NCBI GenBank assembly: GCA_003649235.1
Contig: QMRG01000001.1
Coordinates: forward strand, 1-53,993
Reading direction: 5' to 3'
DNA: 53,993 bases
Origin: Thermoprotei archaeon
GTDB lineage: Archaea; Thermoproteota; Thermoprotei; Thermofilales; B69-G16
A program made the position numbers and the translations under genes. The notes under the pieces were generated by a model, which saw only the letters and a program-made list of their open reading frames with translations, was not told the origin of the DNA and did no database searches. How positions within the stretch are numbered: the first letter of the stretch is position 1; each line of letters starts with the position of its first letter. Of the stretch, positions 3,791-46,788 are shown in pieces.

Positions 3791-4693
3791 ATGGCAGACG
3801 AATACACGAAGATGTTAGCTGAAGGAATCAAGAAGCTTCAGGCGACGACTACGGACGACGCCATCAAACGTGAGATCGTCAAGCAGCTCATCTACAAGAG
3901 AGCCGACTTCATCAGTGCAGGAGTCAAGGTAGTCGGCGTACAGCAATTCGACAACCTTGACATCAAATACGCAATGCCCAGTGAGGCTTCCGTTGAGTAT
4001 CCAGTACCAGAAGGTGCAGGCGCCTCACTAAGCCTGATCGACTGGACCGAATTCACCTTCAGCATGCAGAAAGCCGAAGGCCGCTTCATGATCACTGATG
4101 AGGCCAGAATACGGGGCGTCGACAACGTCCAGTGGCAAATCTCAATACGACGCCTCGGTGAGTCTCTGGCCTACGAGAAGGACAAGAACATCCTGGACAC
4201 ACTAATAAACGGTGCAGGGAATACGTTCTCGGCATCAGCAACATGGGACACTGCAACGGCCTCCCAGATAACTGCCGACATCGCCAAAGGACTCAATTAT
4301 GTGATGTCGGCAAAGGGCGTCGTTGACTCCGACATAAACAGAGTCGCACTTGTCCTGCCAATGAAGGCATGGACAGGGCTTCTCAGAGTCGTCGAGATAG
4401 GCAACATCAACAGAAGCATCCGTGACTTCATCGAGGACGGATACGGCATACAGATCCTACCGAGCAAGTACCTAACAACTGACGCGATAATGCTCGTGAA
4501 AGGTGCTGAGACAGCAATCCATGCAGTGCTCCGGCCACCTGCAGGCATACCTCTCGTCGAACAGAAGAGACACGAAGGCGTCGGCACAGAGTACATCGTC
4601 AGGCAGTTCTTCAACACGAAGGTCATACCTGAGAGCTCCTCACAGACCAGTTCGACCAACAGAATCTGCGTAATCGAGGACGTAGCCAGCTAA
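3791..4693 (+). CDS. major capsid protein (HK97 fold)
   Basis: SD AGGAGGTG lies 10 nt upstream. The 300-aa protein follows protease/scaffold and decoration genes and is followed by an oligo-T terminator. Sequence character (..FTFSMQKAEGRFMITDEARIR..) is typical of HK97-like capsid proteins. Confidence 0.7.
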   Translation: MADEYTKMLAEGIKKLQATTTDDAIKREIVKQLIYKRADFISAGVKVVGVQQFDNLDIKYAMPSEASVEYPVPEGAGASLSLIDWTEFTFSMQKAEGRFMITDEARIRGVDNVQWQISIRRLGESLAYEKDKNILDTLINGAGNTFSASATWDTATASQITADIAKGLNYVMSAKGVVDSDINRVALVLPMKAWTGLLRVVEIGNINRSIRDFIEDGYGIQILPSKYLTTDAIMLVKGAETAIHAVLRPPAGIPLVEQKRHEGVGTEYIVRQFFNTKVIPESSSQTSSTNRICVIEDVAS

Positions 4694-4780: not shown

Positions 4781-5158
4781 ATGAGTGAGTTCCGCCCGGT
4801 TGAGGCCACATTCATTTACACACCGCAAAACGAAGTTACTCTCACCGAAAGCGGCGGCGCTAATCCCACTCACACAAGTCAGGCATTTGATTGTGAGCGT
4901 GCACGTACAATCGTCTTGCAAGTCATCCACAACTACGATGAAAGCGAAAGTACCGACCTGGACGTCCTTGTCTATACAAGCATCGACGGCGTCACATTCG
5001 ACACCGAGCCCTACACAGGTCTTAACATTGGCAGTGACACCGTCAAATCGATTCCCATCTCACCGGGCTTTCGGTACGCAAAGATCTTCGTACGCAACAA
5101 CGACGCCTCACATTCTACGAAAGTCACAACTAAGCTGTGCGTGGTGACCAGCAAGTGA
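4781..5158 (+). CDS. hypothetical virion protein (beta-rich)
   Basis: SD GTGAGGTG is followed after 6 nt by ATG 4781; the track start at 4772 lies inside the SD. The gene is in the structural module. Confidence 0.5.
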   Translation: MSEFRPVEATFIYTPQNEVTLTESGGANPTHTSQAFDCERARTIVLQVIHNYDESESTDLDVLVYTSIDGVTFDTEPYTGLNIGSDTVKSIPISPGFRYAKIFVRNNDASHSTKVTTKLCVVTSK

Positions 5159-5691
5159 GACGTCCACTTCTCCAGCCATACGAACTCCTTTATGTCTCAC
5201 GTTGCGATCACGACTCCTATGTCTTCGTGCCGTATGACGCCACCGAAACCTGTACTCCCGAAGATTACGATCTTACAGGCATCCACAACATTTACTGCTT
5301 TTTCAGTTCCGACTTCGTCGAATTTCTATTCCTGTCACGTCCACCTTTCGACTGGTCATACGAGTCGTCAAATGGCAAGATTTCTCGCGCAATATTCGAC
5401 CTTCGTGCTGGCACACAAGTCTTTGGCGGCTCGCTCTACTTCGACACCAGCAAACTCGAAGACGGAACTCCACGGTTCCTCAACATGATTGTTTCGCTTC
5501 TCAAACCGTTCATTTACGAGCTCAGTCTCACAGTCACAGTAGGCGAAACATCTGTAGGTTCAGGTTTCGTCACACGTGGCAAACCGTTCCAGATTTACAT
5601 AGGTGATGTTTCCGTCGGTCAAGGCATCTTCCCGGTCACGAAGTCATTCGACGTGATGATTGGTGATACACAGGTCGGGGAGGGATCGTGA
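5155..5691 (+). CDS. hypothetical virion protein with three (I/V)G(D/E)xxVGxG repeats at the C-terminus
   Basis: GTG 5155 forms a GTGA overlap with the upstream stop. The C-terminus reads VGETSVGSG..IGDVSVGQG..IGDTQVGEG. Confidence 0.45.
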   Translation: MRRPLLQPYELLYVSRCDHDSYVFVPYDATETCTPEDYDLTGIHNIYCFFSSDFVEFLFLSRPPFDWSYESSNGKISRAIFDLRAGTQVFGGSLYFDTSKLEDGTPRFLNMIVSLLKPFIYELSLTVTVGETSVGSGFVTRGKPFQIYIGDVSVGQGIFPVTKSFDVMIGDTQVGEGS

Positions 5692-6191
5692 TGAGCATCA
5701 CACTTCGAAGTGAGCACTTTAAACGTGACTTCGACTACTTGATCTACAAGGATGGAGACTACTACAAAATCCTTAACGGTGACTCGTTGGCCATAGACTA
5801 TAAGGATGAGGACGCCGCGACTGCCATTGCAAAAGCGATAGAGTATTCGGAAGGTGGAAAGATTTTTCTTAAGAACGCCGAGTACCCTCTTTCTTCTGTA
5901 GTCAGCCTAAAGAGTAATATCTTATTAGAATCAGAGGGAAACGCTATTTTAAGAGCTAATAACGACGATGGAGCTTTGAAAGCAGAGGGAGCAGAAAACA
6001 TCCTCATTAGAAATCTCAAGATAGTCGGCTATGACTATACAAAAGGTATAGGATTGCACCTTAAAGACTGCAATAGATGTCGAATTGAAAATGTCTATTT
6101 TGAGGAGTTCAACGATATATGCTATTTGCAAAACACGAATCAGAGCATTGTACAGAATTGTAGTTTAGACGGGCCGGTGGAACCGCTCTGA
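5688..6191 (+). CDS. right-handed parallel beta-helix repeat protein, N-terminal fragment (frameshifted gene)
   Basis: ATGA overlap with the upstream stop. Beta-helix rungs are visible (NILIRNLKIVGYD..GIGLHLKDCNRCRIENVYFEEF). The ORF ends at TGA 6189..6191 while the -1 frame is open from 6164. Confidence 0.55.
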   Translation: MMSITLRSEHFKRDFDYLIYKDGDYYKILNGDSLAIDYKDEDAATAIAKAIEYSEGGKIFLKNAEYPLSSVVSLKSNILLESEGNAILRANNDDGALKAEGAENILIRNLKIVGYDYTKGIGLHLKDCNRCRIENVYFEEFNDICYLQNTNQSIVQNCSLDGPVEPL

Positions 6192-26896: not shown

Positions 26897-27229
26897 TCAG
26901 ATTTGCTTTCTACCGTGTCGATATGGCCTATTCCGATTCTTCCGTCGTTTCTCTTCGATTCGTTGCCCTATCGGAATGTCCAGCAGCCCCACGATATGCA
27001 TTAACCTGATAAACGAATCGGCGATCTCCTCCTCGAACGCATCTCTGTCGTCGTTTCTCCATGCCTCCATTGCCTCTGACAGCTCAGTGACCACATACAT
27101 CAGCAGCTTCGGTGCGTCCTTCCATGGCTGCTCGAAGACGAATCCGTTCTGTGTGGCCTCATCAGTTACAGCTCTCGCGATGGCCCTGAGCAGCACATCT
27201 AGCCGCTCGGGCTCCTGCAAACACTTCAA
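26897..27229 (-). CDS. MazG-like nucleotide pyrophosphohydrolase
   Basis: LMYVVTELSEAMEAWRNDDRDAFEEEIADSFIRLMHI carries the MazG E-x2-E..E-x2-D helices. TTG 27229 forms a TTGA overlap with the queC stop, so the longer track ORF would overlap queC by 127 nt. Confidence 0.55.
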   Translation of the reverse strand: MKCLQEPERLDVLLRAIARAVTDEATQNGFVFEQPWKDAPKLLMYVVTELSEAMEAWRNDDRDAFEEEIADSFIRLMHIVGLLDIPIGQRIEEKRRKNRNRPYRHGRKQI

Positions 27230-27906
27230 ATGATAGGTTCGGTCTCGTATTCCGTTGGATCCTCGACACCTGCCTCTACGAACGCTCTGTGTCTTTCCTT
27301 GCAGCTCGAGCACCTCCCACAGTGCTTTCGTCCTCCGCAATAACAACTCCACGTGAGCTCAAACGGCACACCTAGCAGCTTTCCGAGACGCACAATTTCA
27401 GCTTTCTTCATGTGAACGAACGGTGCAATGACTTTGAATGAGCTATCGTCTAGCGACACTTGTAGTGCCTTTTCGAGTGCCTGGACGAACTCAGGACGGC
27501 AGTCAGGATATACTGCATAGTCGGATGCATGGGCAGCATATGCTACAGCATGTGCACCGATCGAATAGGCGTATCCTGCAGCTATCGACAGCATGATCAT
27601 GTTGCGGTTCGGCACTACCGTCGACTGCAGAGACTGCGCGTATGCATCTGGTGTTTCTGCGGTAGGACTCGGAACTTCTGCATGACCCGTTAACGCTGAG
27701 TGAAGTACACTCTTCAGGTCCCAGAGGTCGACGAGTACATGATTGACTCCTGCTCGCTCAGCGATTCGCTTTGCGGCAGACGCCTCTCTGGAATGTCTCT
27801 GACCGTAAAGGATGGTCAGTGCGTAGACCTCGTAGCCATCGTCCAACAAATGATACAGTAGCGTGGTGCTATCCAGTCCTCCTGACAGAAGTGTCACTAC
27901 TTGCAT
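27226..27906 (-). CDS. queC: 7-cyano-7-deazaguanine (preQ0) synthase
   Basis: GGAGGTGAG is followed after 4 nt by ATG 27906. It has VVTLLSGGLDSTT (PP-loop SGGxDS), YGQRHSRE, and the C-terminal Zn site CYCGGRKHCGRCSSCKER. Confidence 0.85.
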   Translation of the reverse strand: MQVVTLLSGGLDSTTLLYHLLDDGYEVYALTILYGQRHSREASAAKRIAERAGVNHVLVDLWDLKSVLHSALTGHAEVPSPTAETPDAYAQSLQSTVVPNRNMIMLSIAAGYAYSIGAHAVAYAAHASDYAVYPDCRPEFVQALEKALQVSLDDSSFKVIAPFVHMKKAEIVRLGKLLGVPFELTWSCYCGGRKHCGRCSSCKERHRAFVEAGVEDPTEYETEPII

Positions 27907-28213
27907 GCCGCTCACCTCCGAGAAGCTTAGCCAGACGTGTCACAGGGTATTTCTGTGGTAGCAGCAACACAGGCTTTTTGACGTTGACCTCTACGGTAAC
28001 ATACTCACCTGGCAGTTTCGCTAGTTCCTGTGCGATCAGCGTAACTGCCTTGTGTTTCGTCTGCTCAACGGCCTGCTGCTTGACGCGCTGCTCAACTTCG
28101 GCTTGATTGTCAGCTCTTGGCACCACAAAGGTAGTCTCGACATGAAAGACGGCTGCACCGACAGCTACCTTCTGCGGATCGTTCAGGATCTTAGTCTCCT
28201 TAATCTCGATCAC
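27869..28213 (-). CDS. hypothetical protein embedded between folE and queC
   Basis: GGAGG (28226..28222) is followed after 8 nt by GTG 28213. The product begins MIEIKETKILNDPQKVAVGAAVFHVETTFVVP.. and matches no motif I recognise. It overlaps the queC start by 38 nt. Confidence 0.45.
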   Translation of the reverse strand: MIEIKETKILNDPQKVAVGAAVFHVETTFVVPRADNQAEVEQRVKQQAVEQTKHKAVTLIAQELAKLPGEYVTVEVNVKKPVLLLPQKYPVTRLAKLLGGERHASSDTSVRRTG

Positions 28214-28218
28214 ACCTA

Positions 28219-28797
28219 TCACCTCCTATGTGCAAGTCTCAACTTGAGGAACTCGTCTCGGGGTGCAGTGTTCCAGAGGAAGACTCCACGGCATGCGCTG
28301 CAGGTGTACGTTGACGGCTGAAAGCCCTCGAGTAGCTTGCAGGTGTGGATTGCTTCAGTTACGACGATGACACCGTTCGGTTGCAGTGTCTTCCAGAGCT
28401 CGTCCGCAATCTGCGAAGTAAACCGCTCCTGGATTTGCGGTCGTAGCGCATACTTCTCCACGAGTTGATCGAGCTTCGACATGCCCGTCACTTGATTCCG
28501 CGGAATATAACCAATATCGACGGTTCCATAGAACACCGCCAAGTGATGCTCGCATATGCTCACAAACGGTATGCCGAACGACGCAACGAGATCGGACCTC
28601 TCTGTGTACGTGCGTGTCAGTGTCACTTCACGGTTGTAGCCCTCAGTCATCCGTAGCAGCACGGAAGCTACACGGATCGGTGTTCGTTTGAAGGCCTCAC
28701 TGTTAGGATCAAGTCCGAGCTCTTCGAGGATGGCCTTAACATGTCTCGCTATGACTTTTGCCTTCGGATGGCTTTCAAACGGGACTAATGCCGACAC
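28219..28797 (-). CDS. folE: GTP cyclohydrolase I
   Basis: GAGGAGGAGGTGAAA precedes the GTG. It has FVSICEHHLAVFYGTVDIGYIP, GMSKLDQLVEKYALRPQIQERFTSQIA and VVTEAIHTC, which are the classic FolE blocks. Confidence 0.85.
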   Translation of the reverse strand: MSALVPFESHPKAKVIARHVKAILEELGLDPNSEAFKRTPIRVASVLLRMTEGYNREVTLTRTYTERSDLVASFGIPFVSICEHHLAVFYGTVDIGYIPRNQVTGMSKLDQLVEKYALRPQIQERFTSQIADELWKTLQPNGVIVVTEAIHTCKLLEGFQPSTYTCSACRGVFLWNTAPRDEFLKLRLAHRR

Positions 28798-28801
28798 ACT
28801 T

Positions 28802-29464
28802 TCACCTCCTCCTCACTTTACCCCAGATGAGGACATGTAGCTGAGGCAGCAGCCTCACATTGGGTCTGCGAATCTTCTGAACGACTTCAGCGAGCTCACC
28901 GAGCTTCTTGACATAGTCGGCTCTCCAAGTTTGCCCTTTGAACAGCGCATTGTTCGGCTGGAATACAATTGGAACTCTGGCCGGTACTCCTGCACGCTCA
29001 CAGAACCGCATTGCTTCGAGAATGTCCTTCTCATCGTTCACGACGAACTTTAGTTGCACGTTGCGCTTTTCTCGTGCAAAGCGACCTACAATGTCAGGTC
29101 GCGCATGCTGAAGCTGTCCCGAATTCGACAGCTTCGGACTCACTGTCCAGAGGTCTACGTCATAGTCTGCCCAGATCGTTCCGTTTGTCTCAATTGTCAC
29201 ACGCCTATGGCGCAACCGATCAAGTAGCTCCGTGAGGTCTTGCAGCAGCGGCTCACCACCCGTAATACAGATGTTGCGGCAACCGAGCTTGTACACCTCA
29301 CTGGCAACCTCCTCTGGTGTCATCTCCTTGAACTCTGTCCAGGCATATTTCGTGTCACAGAACGTGCACTTGAGGTTGCAGCCGGACAGCCTCACGAATG
29401 TTGTCGGTCTCCCTATGTCGAGCCCTTCACCTTGGATTGACCGATAGATTTCACACACTTTCAC
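28802..29464 (-). CDS. queE: 7-carboxy-7-deazaguanine synthase (radical SAM)
   Basis: AGGAGGTGGTGAATC precedes the GTG. The N-terminus is IYRSIQGEGLDIGRPTTFVRLSGCNLKCTFCDTKYAW, followed by ITGGEPLL. Confidence 0.8.
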   Translation of the reverse strand: MKVCEIYRSIQGEGLDIGRPTTFVRLSGCNLKCTFCDTKYAWTEFKEMTPEEVASEVYKLGCRNICITGGEPLLQDLTELLDRLRHRRVTIETNGTIWADYDVDLWTVSPKLSNSGQLQHARPDIVGRFAREKRNVQLKFVVNDEKDILEAMRFCERAGVPARVPIVFQPNNALFKGQTWRADYVKKLGELAEVVQKIRRPNVRLLPQLHVLIWGKVRRR

Positions 29465-29802
29465 GATTCACCACCTCCTGTAGGGTTAGTTTGCGTGACC
29501 TCGACGCCGAATTCAGGCGTCTCAAACAAACGCACAGTTATCTCGTTTGCCTTTGGAAAGACTGTCCAGAGCTTGCGCAGGATACACAACGCGAGTTGCT
29601 CGCACGTCATGTTGCCGAGATCTTCATGATCATACCACTTTACTACCTCCCATGTCAACATCTTGACGTCGTGGAAGTCGATCCATCCGTCGATGTCGAT
29701 GACGACCTCTAGGTGATACGTATGTCCATGAGTCCGTCCACATTTCGGATGTCCCTCGATTCGATGCGCAGCGTGGAAGTATGTCTTGTAGATCCTCTTC
29801 AC
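29461..29802 (-). CDS. queD: 6-carboxy-5,6,7,8-tetrahydropterin synthase
   Basis: AAGGAGGTGATAGTCC precedes the GTG. FHAAHRIEGHPKCGRTHGHTYHLEV carries the PTPS/QueD His triad and Cys. 113 aa. Confidence 0.8.
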   Translation of the reverse strand: MKRIYKTYFHAAHRIEGHPKCGRTHGHTYHLEVVIDIDGWIDFHDVKMLTWEVVKWYDHEDLGNMTCEQLALCILRKLWTVFPKANEITVRLFETPEFGVEVTQTNPTGGGES

Positions 29803-30942: not shown

Positions 30943-33312
30943 CTACCAGACCTCGAGTGTTGTCTGTCGCGTTCCCGTAATTACAGTATTCCAATCGAGT
31001 CCCAATGCGGCTAGTAATCCCTCGAACTTCTTCCGTAGCGTTACCTCCTTCATGCGTTTCCAATCCACCACGACACTTCTGGGTAACCGTTCAACATCCT
31101 CTGTGATACATATCGACTTGCACGGACGACTTCCTACACGAATCGTATACACGAGTTTGGGCTTCCTATCCTCACGGAAGTGCCAACCGAACTCCTTTTC
31201 GGCGACTCGCATGCCTTCAAGCCAAGGATTTCTCGCCTTGTACTCTCGGTGCAAGTCCACACCTTTCGGTATTGCAATGTCCTGCACAGGAAGCTTCTCA
31301 AACTGCTGGTAGGCCTCTCTAATGACTCCCACGGCACCTTTGAGGTCGTTCTCTGCAAGCAACTTCATGAAAAAGCGCTTCATCGTTCGTCGCGTAATCT
31401 CTGCCGTGTCGCCTCGCCTCGGCTCAAACCCGATGATGTACAGTTGACCTGTATCCGTGATACCTGCGTAACGCTTCTTCACTGCACCCTTCTCACCTGG
31501 CTTGAAGAATATCCTCACGAAGAGCCTTTCGAACTTGATCTCCGGCGGTCTCTTTGCGCCGTAAGTCCTCGCGAACTTATACAGCTCCTCGTTCAGCATA
31601 TGTTCGATCACATGTACCATTCGCTTACTCTCAGACGGAATTTGCACGTAGACACTGTCGGTATCCGTGTACACGAGCGTATAACCTATCTTCTCAAGTG
31701 CCTTACGCAAACGCGTAATACATTGACGTCCAACCCACGTAATTGACGCCGTACAGTCCGGATCATACAATATGAACGACTCGTGTCCAGTCGCGCCGTA
31801 TACACTACAGGCCAAAAACTTATACAGCGTCTCAAGCTGCCGTACGCGCTTGTATTCCTCTGAACCTTCGGGCAGCTGCTTACGCAAAGCCCTGTAATGT
31901 TCACGTTGCTCCGTGAAGCGACGGACGACACGCGGAATCAAACCTTCCGGTTGCCGCTTAAACCGTGCGATGCCGGCATAGATTTCACCGTTCGGATCCT
32001 TCGTTTCAGGCGAGACGTTAAAGTTGCAGATAATCGTCGGATACAGCGACTTCAAGTCGTAAGCCGCAACGTTCTCATAGATGCCTGGTCTAGGCGGCGA
32101 AATCACCAGTGCGCCCTGAATATCCGCCTTCTCATGCTGTGACCGTGTGGGCAGCGGCCTCTCACGGATTCGCAGTAACTCCACCTCAATGAGGCGTTTG
32201 TTACTGAACGCCCACTTTAACGGTGCACCTACGATCCGTCTCAACTGATCAAAGTAGTTGACCAGTCCACAGTACCGGTCGAGCAACTTCAGCGCATAAG
32301 CGTCCTTTGCAGCATACTCAATCAGCACATCCGTACCTGCAATATCCTCGATTCTGTCGCCGTAGTCCGTATACTCGAAGCCTGTCTCAGTCTGGACGAC
32401 AACCTTAAAGTCGTAAGTCACCCCGAAAGGCCTATCCGTCTGAACACCCTGTCTGCCTGACGTCCACTTCTGATAAGCGCGATACAAATCGAACACTTCA
32501 CGGCCTTTCACGCTTACGTCAAATCTGAACTTACCGTGAAGACTCCTTTCGACGCGTACATAACCTAACGGAGAGATCTCACTCAGAGGCACACCTAACC
32601 TCTTACACCTCATATACAGGTACGGAAAGTCGAAATTCTCGATGTTGTAGCCTGCCAATATGTCAGGATCCTCACGAACGATAAACTGAATCACGCTCAT
32701 CAGCATGTCAATCTCACTATCAAAGAAATGCACTCGGGCAACAATTTGGTCTGTGCCCTCATTGTGCTTGCACGGATACACATACACAGGCTTCTCCGAG
32801 TAGTGAGACTCTCCTGGCGTATAGACGAACACCTCGACAGTCTGCGAATGACTGGAGGCGAACTGCATAGACACAATGGGCCATCTCGCATCTTCAGGAC
32901 GCGGTAGGATCTCCTTCGGAGACAACACTTCGATGTCGAAATAGAGCACCTTCGGAGGTGTACCTAGCGGCTCTGCAGGACGGACTTCATTGTCGACTTC
33001 GAATCCGCAGCGTATTCCCTTGTCGATCAGGTAGCGCAACGCAAATGGAATGTTGGCCTCACAGTGGTACTCGTATCGTTCACGCAAACGCCTCACTTCG
33101 CTGGGATGATTCGCGTAAATCTTCCGGATCGGTCTGCCGAAGATGTCGGTCTCAGGACCGTGTGGGTCGGCAGCCCAGAAGTATGGCCTAAATGTGTCGT
33201 CTTCGACACGGACTCTGTTGCCGTGCTTGTCGCGACCAAACAGTACTACGACTGCCTTGCCATCCGCATTTGTGTAGTAGTCTGCCACCATCAAGTCAGC
33301 ACGAACTGGCAA
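30943..33312 (-). CDS. polB: family B DNA polymerase
   Basis: Exo I is LYFDIEV, Exo II is YNIENFDFPYL and Exo III is YAAKDAYAL. Pol A is AYDLKSLYPTII, Pol B is KFLACSVYGATG and Pol C is VYTDTDSVYV. Confidence 0.9.
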   Translation of the reverse strand: MPVRADLMVADYYTNADGKAVVVLFGRDKHGNRVRVEDDTFRPYFWAADPHGPETDIFGRPIRKIYANHPSEVRRLRERYEYHCEANIPFALRYLIDKGIRCGFEVDNEVRPAEPLGTPPKVLYFDIEVLSPKEILPRPEDARWPIVSMQFASSHSQTVEVFVYTPGESHYSEKPVYVYPCKHNEGTDQIVARVHFFDSEIDMLMSVIQFIVREDPDILAGYNIENFDFPYLYMRCKRLGVPLSEISPLGYVRVERSLHGKFRFDVSVKGREVFDLYRAYQKWTSGRQGVQTDRPFGVTYDFKVVVQTETGFEYTDYGDRIEDIAGTDVLIEYAAKDAYALKLLDRYCGLVNYFDQLRRIVGAPLKWAFSNKRLIEVELLRIRERPLPTRSQHEKADIQGALVISPPRPGIYENVAAYDLKSLYPTIICNFNVSPETKDPNGEIYAGIARFKRQPEGLIPRVVRRFTEQREHYRALRKQLPEGSEEYKRVRQLETLYKFLACSVYGATGHESFILYDPDCTASITWVGRQCITRLRKALEKIGYTLVYTDTDSVYVQIPSESKRMVHVIEHMLNEELYKFARTYGAKRPPEIKFERLFVRIFFKPGEKGAVKKRYAGITDTGQLYIIGFEPRRGDTAEITRRTMKRFFMKLLAENDLKGAVGVIREAYQQFEKLPVQDIAIPKGVDLHREYKARNPWLEGMRVAEKEFGWHFREDRKPKLVYTIRVGSRPCKSICITEDVERLPRSVVVDWKRMKEVTLRKKFEGLLAALGLDWNTVITGTRQTTLEVW

Positions 33313-34000
33313 TCTGCAGCAACCTCCCTGTTAGCCGTCTCGCAAGGAAGTGCTGGAAGCCGTCGAACCGTGCGTTGACTGGGACTCTTGACAGCCCGTC
33401 AACAGGCCGCTCCACTTTGTGGTAGGCAAGCGTCAACGGCAAACTCGTATCCACCGAGCGTATCGCACCTTTTGGGTACTGCTTCAGCTCGTTGAAGTCG
33501 TCAAGTCCCAACAAGTGATGTGCAACATCTCGGCGCAACAAGTTCTTCTTGCGTAGCTTACTGAATACTGCAAACCGTGCACCAAACTTCTTCTGCAACC
33601 ATATGGGCAGTCCTATCGTGTCCACATCGAGCTTGGCTACCTTTCCGTAATACTCAATGAACTCTTCAGGATTGCGTCCTTGTGGCACGGCACAGACGCG
33701 GCACCACGAAGGCTTATACGACTCCAGAAAGTGCTTGGTCAGTTCTAGGGAGCGCTCACCATCCATCAAGACGTCCGGTGCAACCATCTCATCTGCGTCT
33801 ATCTGCGCCGCTAGGTACACGAACTCCTCATCAGGTAGCGGCCGACCGAGCTCATACGCTCCATTATCAATCATCTTGAACTTGTCGGATGCCGTGTAGT
33901 AGTCATATAGCAACTCATTGTCGGGCACCACAAAGTGCATGGTGCCCATCTCAGCGTACTCCAGCAGGAATATCGACCGCGGTATGATTGCCACCCACAT
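33296..34000 (-). CDS. dpdA: DpdA-like DNA guanine transglycosylase (TGT superfamily)
   Basis: TAATG overlap at 34000. TGT-barrel blocks appear in order: KMIDNGAYE (cf. DSGGFQ), DEMVAPDVL, CAVPQGRN, VDTIGLP, HLLGLDD and RSVDTSLPLTLAYH. No Zn CxCxxC site is present. It is adjacent to the preQ0 genes. Confidence 0.6.
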   Translation of the reverse strand: MWVAIIPRSIFLLEYAEMGTMHFVVPDNELLYDYYTASDKFKMIDNGAYELGRPLPDEEFVYLAAQIDADEMVAPDVLMDGERSLELTKHFLESYKPSWCRVCAVPQGRNPEEFIEYYGKVAKLDVDTIGLPIWLQKKFGARFAVFSKLRKKNLLRRDVAHHLLGLDDFNELKQYPKGAIRSVDTSLPLTLAYHKVERPVDGLSRVPVNARFDGFQHFLARRLTGRLLQIASSC

Positions 34001-34290
34001 TACTTCTTCCCTCTCATTCTTGCCTCTTCGTAGAGTTTTACGAGTGCCATCACGCACAGATTCACTATATGTATGTGCTCCTGTATTATCTTATCCAGAT
34101 ACTTCGACGGTATCCTCATGAGCCGCTTTGCTCGATATGCAATCACGCCGTCTAATGTTCGCCATTCCATGTCGTACCATGCATCCTGATACAACTTGCG
34201 TTTCTCTCTGACGATCTGCAGACACTTGTCGAAGAGCTCCTTGAGCACTGAAGTGTATTTTGATTCTACGATCTCGGCTCTGTCGCTCAC
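34000..34290 (-). CDS. DUF1599/MazG-related helical protein
   Basis: GTGA overlap with the upstream stop. KLYQDAWYDMEWRTLDGVIAYRAKRLMRI resembles the DUF1599 signature (YG.aWr.....l.d.i.iK..Ri). Confidence 0.4.
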   Translation of the reverse strand: MSDRAEIVESKYTSVLKELFDKCLQIVREKRKLYQDAWYDMEWRTLDGVIAYRAKRLMRIPSKYLDKIIQEHIHIVNLCVMALVKLYEEARMRGKK

Positions 34291-35141
34291 TTAATCACCA
34301 CTCCAAGCTGTTCTCTCAGTAACTTTACGAGCTTGTCATAGGTGACATCTTCGATTTCAACCTCGAAGCCTCTCTGAAACCTGCATTTTTGAAGCGTCGA
34401 CACATACTTCCATCGCTTGGCAACCGGATCGAATTCCTTTCGCGCGTAGAGAACCACGTCGACCATATGCGCTGTATCCTTCTGAGCTCGCGGCACATAC
34501 AGACCCGTTGGATTGCCTTGCGAGTCATACTTCTCAGTCGTCTTTGCAGTCAACACCACGTTTATCGGTTGTGCCAGCAACCTCAAGATGAGCTTCCGAT
34601 ATCGCATATTTGCCTTGCCGTACTCAAACCGATACGGCTGTCCGCTCGCCGTCTTCTTACTTGCAACTACCTCCAGCCATGCCTGCATCCATGACCAGAC
34701 ATCACTCACCGAGTCGATGACCACTGTGCCTTTCTGAAGCGTCCTCAGTGCCGTCAACGCCTTCTCTAACGCCTCAATACTCTGTATCGGATCGACCTCG
34801 ACCGTTTTGGTGTCCAGTACGCATGCCTCGAAGACTCGTATGTCCTTGTTCTTGAAGGGCTCTTTCTGTAGCAACGGTGCCACGCCAAACTCTGTGTCGA
34901 CGACGTAAAGTGGCTCTGGAAACGTCAGGGCAAAGTGGGTTCTCGGGGTCTGCCAGGCAAACAAATAGTTGGGCGTACCTTAGCCAGGGTTGTCTAGGGC
35001 CTGGCAGACGTTCCCGACCTCTGGTTCTCCATACATCAACACCTTCAGCCCTGACTTCTGCACGATCTCTTCAGGCTTATGCCAGTAGTCCTCGGCCTTT
35101 AACTCTTCGGCTTCCTCTTGCTTCAGGATGTTCCAGCCCAC
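34287..35141 (-). CDS. Sak4/AAA_24-like RecA-superfamily ATPase, interrupted by a 69-nt BHB-type intron (exons 35141..35011 and 34941..34287)
   Basis: GGAGGTGA is followed after 4 nt by GTG 35141. The spliced product reads ..GLKVLMYGEPEVGKTHFALTFPEPLYVVDTEFG.. (Walker A) and ..GTVVIDSVSDVW (Walker B). The unspliced frame hits TAA at 34982..34980, and the track ORF (TTG 34964) lacks both an SD and a P-loop. Confidence 0.6.
34942..35010 (-). other. putative archaeal bulge-helix-bulge (hBHBh') intron inside a protein-coding gene
   Basis: The fold is helix GGU/ACC, bulge AGA (34943..34941), 4-bp helix CGGG/CCCG, bulge AAC (35012..35010), then an 11-bp helix GUCUGCCAGGC/GCCUGGCAGAC. All pairs are Watson-Crick. 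Cutting after nt 2 of each bulge removes 69 nt. Confidence 0.6.
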
Positions 35142-35145
35142 ACTC

Positions 35146-35409
35146 TCACCTCCTCACTTTAATCTTTCGGCCTTTCAAATGCATGAAGGCTTTCGCTTTC
35201 TTCTTGTCCGCCTCTTGTTGCTTTTTCAACTTCTCGAGGAATTGGACTCGCTCTTCGGCTTTACTCTTCAGAAACGCATCAAGCTCAGTCTCCGACAATC
35301 TCTCAAACTCGTCAAGAGGAACTGACACTCCGAAGCTGTCATTCTTACTGCTCAGCACTACCAGTACGGTTTCACCTTCAACTCTTATTTCGGTAATCTC
35401 ATACTCCAT
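35146..35409 (-). CDS. hypothetical protein
   Basis: GTGAGGTGATGAT precedes the ATG. 87 aa with a Lys-rich C-terminus. Confidence 0.5.
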   Translation of the reverse strand: MEYEITEIRVEGETVLVVLSSKNDSFGVSVPLDEFERLSETELDAFLKSKAEERVQFLEKLKKQQEADKKKAKAFMHLKGRKIKVRR

Positions 35410-37659: not shown

Positions 37660-37893
37660 TCAGCGAATGTAGGCTAGGGTTCTGTGATCTCGGTTATCGG
37701 ATGGCTCGACATGTAGAAGGTAGTCCTTGGCAATTTCGAGAGTGCCTATAGCCATGGGTTTGCAATCGTCTAGGAGATTGAGGATGACATATACACGAGC
37801 AGGTAGCTGTTCGTCAGGAGGAACGCTTTGAATGCGCTTTCGGAGCTCAACAATCAACGGGTCTAGAAGACGTTCGATGTCAACTTTGGCCAT
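37660..37893 (-). CDS. hypothetical protein
   Basis: GAGGAGGTGAAGTC precedes the ATG. 77 aa. Confidence 0.5.
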   Translation of the reverse strand: MAKVDIERLLDPLIVELRKRIQSVPPDEQLPARVYVILNLLDDCKPMAIGTLEIAKDYLLHVEPSDNRDHRTLAYIR

Positions 37894-38393
37894 GACTTCA
37901 CCTCCTCGGAGAGAGCTTTCACGATTCGGTCGAGTTGCTCTTTTGACTTGAGTCCGAATATCGAAATGTATCTCGGAAAAACGAGCACATTGTGTCCAGC
38001 GACAGTGACCGTTGCACAGTTCGTATATTCGGGTGTGTAGATGGCGCCATGCTCTGCAAGAGCCTCAATGTCGATGGGCTCGTCGACGTAGACCCCTGCA
38101 GACAGCAGCGTAACGCGCGTCTTCGGCTCTGGCAGCTTGCCAACGTACTTCTCGAGCTCCTTAGTAGCTTCTCGTACGACATCACCATAGTTGAGTGTCT
38201 TCAGTCCGTGAAGTATCACCTTACCTGTCCTGTAGATCTGCATGTAGTACTTCCAGTAGTACTTCACCGCCGGAAACGTCCACGGATCATACTCCGCCAG
38301 ACCTTCCGGTAGCTGCTCGTAGATGTACTCGAGGTCGAATATCACATCAGGATACTCGACCAGCACGTTCACATTGTTGATGACCACTTTCAC
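37863..38393 (-). CDS. TATA-binding protein (TBP)-like two-repeat protein
   Basis: AGGAGGT is followed after 7 nt by the GTG. Repeat 1 is INNVNVLVEYPDVIFDLEYIYEQLPEGLAEYDPWTFPAV..IYRTGKVILHGLKTLNYGDVVREATKELEKY. Repeat 2 is VTLLSAGVYVDEPIDIEALAEHGAIYTPEYTNCATV..VLVFPRYISIFGLKSKEQLDRIVKAL. Both parallel the archaeal TBP repeat pattern (I.N.v......dLe.......Y.Pe.FPg......i..sGK....G.ks.e....a...l). Confidence 0.5.
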   Translation of the reverse strand: MKVVINNVNVLVEYPDVIFDLEYIYEQLPEGLAEYDPWTFPAVKYYWKYYMQIYRTGKVILHGLKTLNYGDVVREATKELEKYVGKLPEPKTRVTLLSAGVYVDEPIDIEALAEHGAIYTPEYTNCATVTVAGHNVLVFPRYISIFGLKSKEQLDRIVKALSEEVKSWPKLTSNVF

Positions 38394-46300: not shown

Positions 46301-46496
46301 TTGTCTCTTCCTCCACTATTCGTAATCGGCCGGAGCGGTAAAGGCTCCAAAGCTCTGCTTGTATCTCGTCGTTCACTCTGACTTCCAGACGCTTCAGTGC
46401 CCGCTCGATAGGATAACACCCGATAGGGTCGTCTGCGATTAACAGCTTTATCTCGTCAATCTTCTCCTTAATTTGCTCAAGTTGCTTCAGGTTCAT
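46287..46496 (-). CDS. hypothetical protein
   Basis: GGAGGTGAG is followed after 4 nt by ATG 46496. Confidence 0.45.
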   Translation of the reverse strand: MNLKQLEQIKEKIDEIKLLIADDPIGCYPIERALKRLEVRVNDEIQAELWSLYRSGRLRIVEEETNGSE

Positions 46497-46518
46497 GCAT
46501 CTCACCTCCAGTTTCGGG

Positions 46519-46612
46519 GCCGATGAGTCCTATCCTCCTGCCCGTCTGCCAGGAGGAAGAGCGGTTTAGCTGCAAAGTGACGGGTCGCTGTGCTCTTCTC
46601 GGACTCATCGGC
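46519..46612 (-). ncRNA. structured three-way-junction element (strand inferred from context)
   Basis: P1 is a 12-bp stem GCCGATGAGTCC/GGACTCATCGGC (46519..46530 with 46601..46612). It encloses the hairpins CCTCCTG/CAGGAGG (46534..46556) and GAAGAGC/GCTCTTC (46556..46598). All pairs are Watson-Crick. It lies between two co-directional genes. Confidence 0.35.
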
Positions 46613-46775
46613 TCTCCCGCTTACCATTCAAAAGTGCATTCGCACTTAGAAACTTACGACTTAGAGTAGCGATCACTTCTCCGCCGTAGACCAAGACAAC
46701 CTTATTGACGCCTGTCTTAAAGCACTCTTCTACGTCGAGTACGATTCGATCAGGCATTCTCTTAACAATCTCCAC
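46605..46775 (-). CDS. 56-aa ORF missed by the track
   Basis: AAGGGGTGAG is followed by GTG 46781 or 46775. The product is MEIVKRMPDRIVLDVEECFKTGVNKVVLVYGGEVIATLSRKFLSANALLNGKRESR. Its stop lies inside stem P1 of the structured element. Confidence 0.4.
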   Translation of the reverse strand: MEIVKRMPDRIVLDVEECFKTGVNKVVLVYGGEVIATLSRKFLSANALLNGKRESR

Positions 46776-46788
46776 GGTCACTCACCCC

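Follow-up and report, generated by a model that had tools for sequence, protein, structure and literature searches.

In archaeal bulge-helix-bulge (BHB) splicing, the RtcB ligase joins the exons and circularises the intron, and the products of BHB cleavage, held together by the flanking helices, are its normal substrate in tRNA and cbf5 splicing. A BHB intron in the cbf5 pre-mRNA was reportedly described by Watanabe in 2002. The tRNA splicing endonuclease EndA cuts the BHB between the second and third nucleotides of each bulge and leaves 2′,3′-cyclic phosphate and 5′-OH ends, as described from a crystal structure (PMC12397907). In Crenarchaeota the cbf5 pre-mRNA intron is processed by this pathway; Yokobori et al. 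(2009) found no cbf5 BHB intron bearing an open reading frame (ORF), explicitly noted this gap and cite unproven 12-bp insertions in a rudivirus (PMC2738675). As late as 2020, cbf5 was stated to be the sole mRNA with a coding BHB intron, alongside a BHB intron that EndA removes from the 5′ untranslated region (5′UTR) of Haloferax volcanii HVO_1309 (PMC7714728). Here we examined a 53,993-nt stretch of DNA (the window, meaning the whole stretch that was analysed) in which a Sak4-like ATPase gene is broken at its Walker A motif. All coordinates are positions in the window, and the gene and its intron lie on the minus strand. A sequence-only reading of this DNA had taken the break for a BHB intron, and all of the sequence-level tests that it proposed were found to support that view. 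The 69 nt at 35010..34942 are very probably a BHB mini-intron of the viral ATPase pre-mRNA, predicted to be spliced by host EndA and RtcB.

The locus resembles the cbf5 intron of Desulfurococcales and Sulfolobales in that each is a short BHB element (tens of nucleotides) in a protein gene and interrupts a catalytically essential motif. The tRNA splicing endonuclease removes the cbf5 intron and is predicted to remove the element described here, and the cbf5 lineage is the Thermoproteota, where this contig was binned. The two differ in that cbf5 is one cellular gene with a single site, whereas the viral ATPase family has six sites, up to three introns per gene and ORF-bearing forms. The HAC1/XBP1 system (IRE1 plus tRNA ligase or RtcB) is alike in that protein-catalysed excision from an mRNA is followed by joining by a tRNA ligase; there, however, the endonuclease is a different one, twin stem-loops take the place of the BHB, and the reaction belongs to a regulated eukaryotic stress response. 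The sequence-only reading had named cbf5 as the only protein-coding gene with a reported BHB intron and knew of no viral example. The first statement holds in the searchable literature, to which the one Haloferax 5′UTR intron is added, and no report of viral protein-coding BHB introns was found in the searchable full-text literature, outside of which most subscription journals lie. That literature does hold a predicted intron in a viral tRNA gene, as well as virus-encoded RNA ligases proposed for tRNA intron removal. The mechanism is known; what appears to be new is the viral setting, the multiple sites and the ORF-bearing forms in a protein gene.

The interrupted ATPase gene and its BHB element

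The ATPase gene was found to be composed of the following parts.

35146..35153, minus strand: Shine-Dalgarno sequence GGAGGTGA of the ATPase gene, read directly, 4 nt upstream of the GTG start at 35141
35011..35141, minus strand: exon 1 of the ATPase (Sak4-like, AAA_24), comprising 43 codons and AA, the first two bases of a Lys codon
34942..35010, minus strand: predicted BHB mini-intron, 69 nt, with an in-frame TAA at 34982..34980; absent from P0001 (locus L001) and other intact homologues
34287..34941, minus strand: exon 2 of the ATPase, 218 codons plus stop, containing the Walker B-like VVIDSVS

Re-reading of the bases bore out the broken frame that had been described earlier, including (i) the GTG start at 35141 with its Shine-Dalgarno sequence; (ii) the break by the TAA at 34982..34980, with the remainder of the gene in the same frame; and (iii) a downstream ORF, starting with TTG at 34964, that lacks the P-loop. 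The upstream ORF (35141..34980, minus strand) ends in GLKVLMYGEPEVGNVCQALDNPG and then TAA; its path runs through GLKVLMYGEPEVG and then NVCQALDNPG-TAA. The downstream ORF (34964..34287, minus strand) begins MFAWQTPRTHFALTFP, is in the same frame as the upstream ORF, continues THFALTFPEPLYVVDTEFG and has no P-loop. Excision of 35010..34942 (69 nt) gives a 786-nt, 261-codon ORF reading YGEPEVGKTHFALTFPEP, and the Walker A motif GEPEVGKT of the predicted product exists only after splicing. When compared with Pfam, the spliced 261-aa product matched AAA_24 at E = 1.2e-22 and 81.2 bits (cut-off 27) with a match that crosses the junction, versus E = 3.6e-15 for the unspliced 225-aa downstream ORF alone. 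The spliced protein also matched PHROG 124, 'Sak4-like ssDNA annealing protein', at E = 1.9e-26, and both profiles uphold the Sak4-like label given to the gene from its letters. Gene callers split or shorten such genes, the window ATPase having been deposited as a 225-aa fragment without the P-loop, and the annotation of archaeal viruses would gain from a BHB-aware step.

A search with the spliced protein against a collection of 5.8 billion proteins returned 41 relatives. The protein P0001 (260 aa, locus L001) is 84% identical to the spliced product and uninterrupted, and the predicted spliced peptide GEPEVGKTHFAL is that of this intron-less relative. In P0001, P0003 and P0014 the sequence GEPEVGKTHFALTFP reads straight through the predicted junction, and the junction codon in L001 is AAA, the same codon as would be assembled by the predicted splicing in the window. 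The 69 nt are therefore an insertion relative to intact genes, and one that is precisely placed. This agrees with the earlier view of the 23 codons as an insertion, for which an alignment of homologues had been advised, as the intact relatives are continuous across the junction. Relatives with the same codons, no stop and no conserved helices, which were to speak against an intron, were not seen; the relatives either lack the insertion or carry a structurally matching BHB of different sequence, at this site or elsewhere in the gene.

The BHB itself is made up of the following elements, which were read directly and located by a Watson-Crick scan and folding.

35017..35019, minus strand: 5′ strand of the outer helix h, GGU, 3 bp with ACC at 34940..34938
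35013..35016, minus strand: 5′ strand of the central 4-bp helix H, CGGG (exonic), pairing with CCCG at 34947..34944
35010..35012, minus strand: 5′ bulge AAC, predicted cut between 35011 and 35010
34999..35009, minus strand: 5′ strand of the inner helix h′, GUCUGCCAGGC, an 11-bp perfect Watson-Crick helix with 34958..34948
34948..34958, minus strand: 3′ strand of the inner helix h′, GCCUGGCAGAC
34944..34947, minus strand: 3′ strand of the central helix H, CCCG (intronic)
34941..34943, minus strand: 3′ bulge AGA, predicted cut between 34942 and 34941
34938..34940, minus strand: 3′ strand of the outer helix h, ACC

Read along the 5′ strand, the outer helix is followed by the 4-bp helix, the bulge and the inner helix; the 3′ strand runs from the inner helix through the 4-bp helix and the bulge to the outer helix. 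The two 3-nt bulges are on opposite strands, exactly 4 bp apart, each 3′ of its strand of the central helix. This geometry is canonical hBHBh′, in the register of archaeal tRNA 37/38 introns. Every coordinate and base that the sequence-only reading had assigned to the GGU/ACC, CGGG/CCCG and 11-bp helices and to the AAC and AGA bulges was correct. The hBHBh′ substrate geometry that it proposed also stood: the minimum free energy (MFE) structure from RNAfold (−38.5 kcal/mol, z = −2.6) contains both the 11-bp and the 4-bp helix as well as the 5′ bulge, with the outer helix marginal. Cleavage after the second bulge nucleotide had been said to remove exactly 69 nt and rebuild GKT, and both the arithmetic and the intron-less homologues agree; the third base of the 3′ bulge, A34941, completes the AAA Lys codon of GKT, of which the AA is supplied by the 5′ bulge.

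The whole window was scanned on both strands for BHB motifs formed by Watson-Crick pairs only, with introns of at most 1,200 nt, and compared with 40 Markov shuffles. A scan allowing G-U pairs was too noisy to nominate further window introns, and the Watson-Crick-only scan was therefore relied on. Motifs with at least 18 pairs occurred 0.025 times per shuffled window; the real window, scanned as the sequence-only reading had advised, yielded the ATPase motif plus two further motifs of at least 18 pairs that this reading had missed, all on the minus strand. When fake gaps were set in intact homologous genes, an in-frame BHB with at least 16 pairs was found in 2 of 381 trials (maximum 16). A chance origin of the window BHB is excluded.

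In the mechanism that we propose, the ATPase transcript would fold into a helix, a 3-nt bulge, a 4-bp helix, a 3-nt bulge and a further helix. Host EndA would then cut each strand between its second and third bulge nucleotides, and a host RtcB-type ligase would join the exons and circularise the intron, in the way known for the introns of tRNA, rRNA and cbf5. The joined exons would supply the AAA Lys codon, the GEPEVGKT Walker A motif and an uninterrupted 261-aa protein.

BHB insertions in related viral ATPase genes

Several of the homologues were truncated in the database, and their contigs were compared together with about 100 further loci from IMG/VR and JGI metagenomes; for IMG/VR, a single-protein search gave no match while an alignment-based search did. 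The loci were screened with a family hidden Markov model for matches split across reading frames, and each gap was searched for a BHB that, when cut canonically, would bring the pieces together in frame (L007 was settled by eye and by folding). This analysis identified 13 non-redundant BHB insertions at six sites of homologous ATPase genes, all six within the most conserved motifs of the protein. They are listed below by junction, with a hyphen at the point of insertion.

EVG-KT: window (69 nt), L037 (81 nt), L054 (71 nt)
PE-VGK: L004 (269 nt), L005 (68 nt)
DTE-FG: L017 (482 nt), L054 (50 nt)
FEAA-ILDP: L037 (75 nt), L054 (76 nt)
RFE-Y/WGKA: L002 (458 nt), L007 (67 nt)
FEWG-KANM: L017 (68 nt), L048 (507 nt)

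Under one fixed cleavage rule, frame and family consensus were restored at 13 of 13 junctions with no residue gained or lost. The rule is the one that the sequence-only reading had assumed; it agrees with the described action of EndA (PMC12397907) and yields the consensus peptide at each of the introns. Two introns are present in the genes of L017 and L037 and three in that of L054, and the exons of these genes have no other lesions. Pair scores ranged from 16 to 28 in 10 of the 13; the exceptions were both DTE-FG introns, whose central helix is interrupted by a single A·G mismatch, and L007, whose outer helix is weak. When 3 outer, 4 central and 8 inner pairs were counted per intron, in-register Watson-Crick or G-U pairing was found at 91% of positions over the 13 introns, compared with 31-42% when the 3′ partner was slid by 1-3 nt. 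The first bulge position is A in 25 of 26 bulges and the second in 22 of 26. Among the introns at the Lys codon of the window gene (window, L037 and L054), the inner helices are unrelated to one another (GUCUGCCAGGC, GAGGUCAGCC and GAGAUUAGAUUCGA), a pattern that, on comparison of the sequences, is whole-helix covariation. Across 609 kb of collected loci, Watson-Crick-only BHBs with at least 19 pairs numbered four on the gene strand and 0 on the opposite one, and the strongest BHBs across all loci are on the coding strand. Taken with these comparisons, the predicted window intron is one of a family of apparently mobile introns and not an isolated case, a point that the sequence-only reading had missed.

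The lengths of the 13 introns (50-507 nt) bear on whether the gap could be bridged by something other than RNA splicing, such as ribosomal recoding (T4 gene 60-type bypassing or frameshifting) or an intein. With its stable hairpin and a stop codon soon after a Gly codon, the window gene has a superficial likeness to the gene 60 coding gap. However, Lys-Thr cannot follow Gly at any landing site: the genomic codons past the gap are AGA ACC (Arg-Thr), and bypassing would therefore yield GRT, not GKT. In addition, 9 of the 13 insertions in the family have lengths not divisible by 3 and therefore cannot be translated through. An intein is ruled out by the in-frame TAA and the size of only 23 codons, and we regard recoding or an intein as extremely unlikely. 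Group I and group II introns are likewise ruled out by the 69-nt size and by the lack of any Rfam match at gathering score in the window.

LAGLIDADG ORFs were found in four long insertions, three of them among the 13 (L002, L017 and L048). The fourth, a 619-nt insertion at FEAA in L099, was not counted among the 13, as the BHB search did not locate its 3′ splice site. The protein encoded by the L048 intron has a double LAGLIDADG motif (Pfam LAGLIDADG_3, E = 9.4e-12). The L002, L017 and L099 ORFs, which lie at three different sites, are 29-38% identical to one another, and their profile matched the I-CreI family of homing endonucleases (E = 2.5e-14) as well as, over its full length, the 'rRNA intron-encoded endonuclease' of PDB 3e54 (E = 2.9e-9). 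The first 14 intron nucleotides are identical in the 75-nt intron of L037 and the 619-nt intron of L099 at the same site, and the start of the inner helix is common to the 68-nt intron of L017 and the 507-nt intron of L048. By these likenesses, the short introns look like ORF-less deletion derivatives of LAGLIDADG-bearing introns, and the 69-nt element of the window is best read as such a mini-intron derivative. It would descend from a mobile BHB intron with a LAGLIDADG gene that has been miniaturised, the lineage having spread by homing into conserved ATPase motifs.

Crenarchaeal rRNA introns (I-DmoI, I-PorI, I-ApeI and PDB 3e54) present the same combination of a BHB with a LAGLIDADG ORF, a conserved target and ORF-less deletion derivatives. 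They differ in that they are carried by cellular rRNA genes, whereas the viral introns are in a protein-coding gene, where exon joining must also keep the reading frame. The group I introns of phages (T4 td, nrdB and nrdD; DNA polymerase genes) are likewise mobile introns in conserved motifs of DNA-metabolism genes of tailed viruses, and their removal at the RNA level makes the insertion phenotypically neutral; however, they are self-splicing ribozymes, unlike the viral BHB introns, which have no catalytic RNA and would need host protein enzymes. It is fairly probable that tailed viruses, probably of Thermoproteota, have in their protein-coding genes a whole population of BHB introns that are mobile and spliced by proteins. 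The introns would include LAGLIDADG-bearing and miniature forms, up to three per gene and all at the most conserved motifs, wholly dependent on host EndA and RtcB and forming an archaeal counterpart of phage group I introns. As part of the same proposal, BHBs would also be used outside coding introns, in leaders directly upstream of Shine-Dalgarno sites and in a 22-bp long-range BHB across the junction of a 234-aa ORF and the family B DNA polymerase (PolB) gene, both described below, which hints that viral mRNA processing, regulation or circular-RNA production draws on the tRNA-splicing machinery of the host. If the intron reading of the ATPase gene holds, BHB splicing would extend to viral protein-coding genes, an archaeal system would have multi-intron protein genes, and archaeal viruses would depend on host EndA and RtcB in parallel with phage group I introns. 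It would also supply the ORF-bearing BHB introns of protein genes that were missing according to Yokobori et al. and support a homing origin.

Homing elements were also seen in another gene of these viruses. The PolB proteins of L002 (12241..15603) and L007 (3302..6703), together with P0051, a protein from a 76,879-nt contig that also holds L017, are 1120-1133 aa long with a LAGLIDADG_3 domain inside the polymerase. This insertion is probably an intein; with the introns, such inteins would mean that homing elements have invaded these viruses at the protein level as well as at the RNA level.

Some candidates from the survey were set aside. The insertions at L055 1241..1341 and L058 1493..1593 encode a CxxC...CxxC zinc ribbon of about 33 aa and, like a roughly 59-aa insertion in L026-L028 (around 4291..4480), are in-frame protein insertions and not introns. 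A 17-mer of the window intron in the IMG/VR contig L114 is due to chance, being in unrelated context with no inverted partner, and no second copy of the window intron was found in 113 loci. The split PolB gene of L113 (1530..1700; a close relative, 78% identity) has a short deletion and a frameshift with no BHB. This break is a true lesion or an assembly error and stands in contrast to the intron cases.

The ATPase gene could instead be dead, pseudogenised by a palindromic insertion resembling a miniature inverted-repeat transposable element (MITE), with the BHB-like shape and the in-frame deletion coincidental. The insertion does carry a stop codon, the gene is annotated as a truncated 225-aa ORF, the contig is metagenomic, and L113 does have a truly broken polymerase (deletion plus frameshift). 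Yet chance comes nowhere near to explaining the exact BHB geometry and the rebuilt AAA Lys codon, homologues have twelve further insertions that follow the same cleavage rule and restore the consensus peptide, and genes with two or three insertions (L017, L037 and L054) are free of other exon lesions. Exon 1, which is upstream of the insertion, also remains under purifying selection. When compared with L001, exon 1 has pN = 0.14 and pS = 0.97 (saturated) and exon 2 has omega = 0.04, values that indicate that both exons are under purifying selection and have evolved as coding sequence; dN/dS averages over a long divergence, however, and a very recent inactivating insertion in this genome is compatible with it. 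Intron-bearing alleles with intact exons persist in lineages with a protein identity of only 37-42%, and this speaks against decay. We consider a dead gene to be quite unlikely.

The averaging of dN/dS is one of several points that weigh against the window element being an intron spliced by the host. No full-length spliced form of the window protein was found in the 5.8-billion-protein collection. The outer helix is only 3 bp, and it is the weakest element and marginal because the MFE fold replaces it by a pair between U35017 and A34943 that extends the central helix. The window intron has no ORF of its own, LAGLIDADG or other, and its mobility is deduced from its ORF-bearing relatives. The host is assigned from metagenome binning and a TATA-binding protein (TBP), and a weak EndA-like match encoded by the virus is compatible with a Pfam screen in which the best 25 of 51 families were listed.

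Viral gene content and host context

Genes for scaffold, capsid and tail-tube proteins occupy the plus strand between 1 and about 24 kb. On the minus strand are genes for an ERCC4 nuclease, QueC, FolE, QueE, PTPS, a Cas4-like PD-(D/E)XK nuclease and PolB, as well as DUF1599, the ATPase, TBP, RNase H and an epimerase. The window thus has the gene content of a tailed virus, although it was deposited in an NCBI 'Thermoprotei archaeon' metagenome-assembled genome (MAG); no terminal repeats were found on the window contig. The features that bear on the host and on the viral DNA are as follows.

37863..38393, minus strand: TBP homologue (PF00352, E = 1.3e-8)
26897..29802, minus strand: 7-deazaguanine gene set (QueC, GTP cyclohydrolase I, radical-SAM QueE and PTPS)
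34000..34290, minus strand: DUF1599, 'nucleotide modification associated domain 1'

TBP is also present in the relatives L002 and L004, an Elf1 zinc ribbon was found in relatives, and two window ORFs have TFIIB-type zinc ribbons; TBP and the TFIIB-type ribbons point to an archaeal transcription system. The window PolB is identical to the NCBI 'hypothetical protein DRJ38_00200 [Thermoprotei archaeon]', and the contig is therefore binned with the Thermoprotei MAG. As evidence of the host this binning is weak but coherent, and a scan of genome contigs gave only distant matches, in bacterial bins. The 225-aa protein called in the window had no exact match in the contig index. No tRNA genes were detected in the window, nor did any Rfam family reach gathering score anywhere in it, and no tRNA-intron endonuclease or RtcB was among the matches listed for the window (the best 25 of 51 Pfam families). 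The 7-deazaguanine set and DUF1599 are syntenic in all relatives, and these genes suggest that the viral DNA may be modified. The conserved 234-aa ORF beside DUF1599 had no Pfam, PHROG or PDB match; the name 'DpdA-like' was rejected for it as unsupported, the DNA-guanine transglycosylase 7ui4 scoring only E = 0.49.

Further BHB motifs in the window and in a relative

The minus strand, which codes for the early and replication genes, carries all three BHB motifs with at least 18 pairs in the window.

35010..34942, minus strand: motif (a), the predicted ATPase intron, 18 Watson-Crick pairs
46613..46513, minus strand: motif (b), 101 nt, 18 Watson-Crick pairs, with a CGGG/CCCG central helix as in the ATPase intron
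32958..33820, minus strand: motif (c), cleavage sites 33800/32973, 22 Watson-Crick pairs, bracketing 828 nt

Motif (c) consists of a 14-bp outer helix, a GCAG/CTGC central helix, a 4-bp inner helix and the bulges ATA and AGA. Its arms are in coding sequences, one in the 234-aa ORF and the other in PolB (codon 113), and excision would truncate both genes and leave a linear or circular product without in-frame fusion or a new long frame. In L001, the closest relative to have both arms, 17 of the 22 pairs are retained and there are no compensatory changes. Motif (c) may serve as a site of regulation by EndA, give rise to circular RNA or be a repeat at the DNA level. Long-range BHB-like matches from an upstream gene into PolB in L002, L004 and L007 were rejected as not homologous to motif (c) and at noise level.

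This motif raises the question of whether the ATPase BHB is a cleavage-only regulatory site, at which EndA cuts the mRNA to lower or time ATPase expression with no productive ligation of the exons. Such a role would fit a perfect motif (33800..32973) whose excision would destroy two genes, the BHBs in intergenic leaders, and the EndA-dependent 5′UTR processing known in Haloferax (PMC7714728). Cleavage alone would require neither the restoration of frame and exact consensus at 13 of 13 sites nor a Lys codon built from two bulges, and helix-held BHB cleavage products are what RtcB normally ligates. For the ATPase gene we therefore hold cleavage without ligation to be very unlikely and continue to favour splicing.

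Motif (b) has the sequence agCGGG[aga]GCCGATGAGTCC...GGACTCATCGGCCCCG[aaa]ct, and the RNA fold reproduces it. The motif takes in the final 3 codons of a 58-aa ORF (46781..46605), and the 3′ cut would fall 2 nt before the Shine-Dalgarno sequence GGAGGTGA of a gene starting with ATG at 46496, a position like that of a putative 5′UTR or intergenic intron. The 10-mer CCTGGCAGAC that is common to the introns of motifs (a) and (b) was judged to be within chance. In the relative L002, a tandem array of four hairpins was identified at 4875..5270 (fold z = −3.45), each flanked by GGCC[aNa]. The hairpins each form a BHB with their neighbours, of which the scan found three (4881..5034, 5035..5112 and 5189..5268). 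The Haloferax HVO_1309 5′UTR intron is like motif (b) and the L002 array in being just upstream of a Shine-Dalgarno sequence, and it differs from the ATPase intron in being outside the coding sequence. The L002 array is intergenic and, with the same placement as motif (b), ends just upstream of the Shine-Dalgarno sequence of the gene at 5280..5708.

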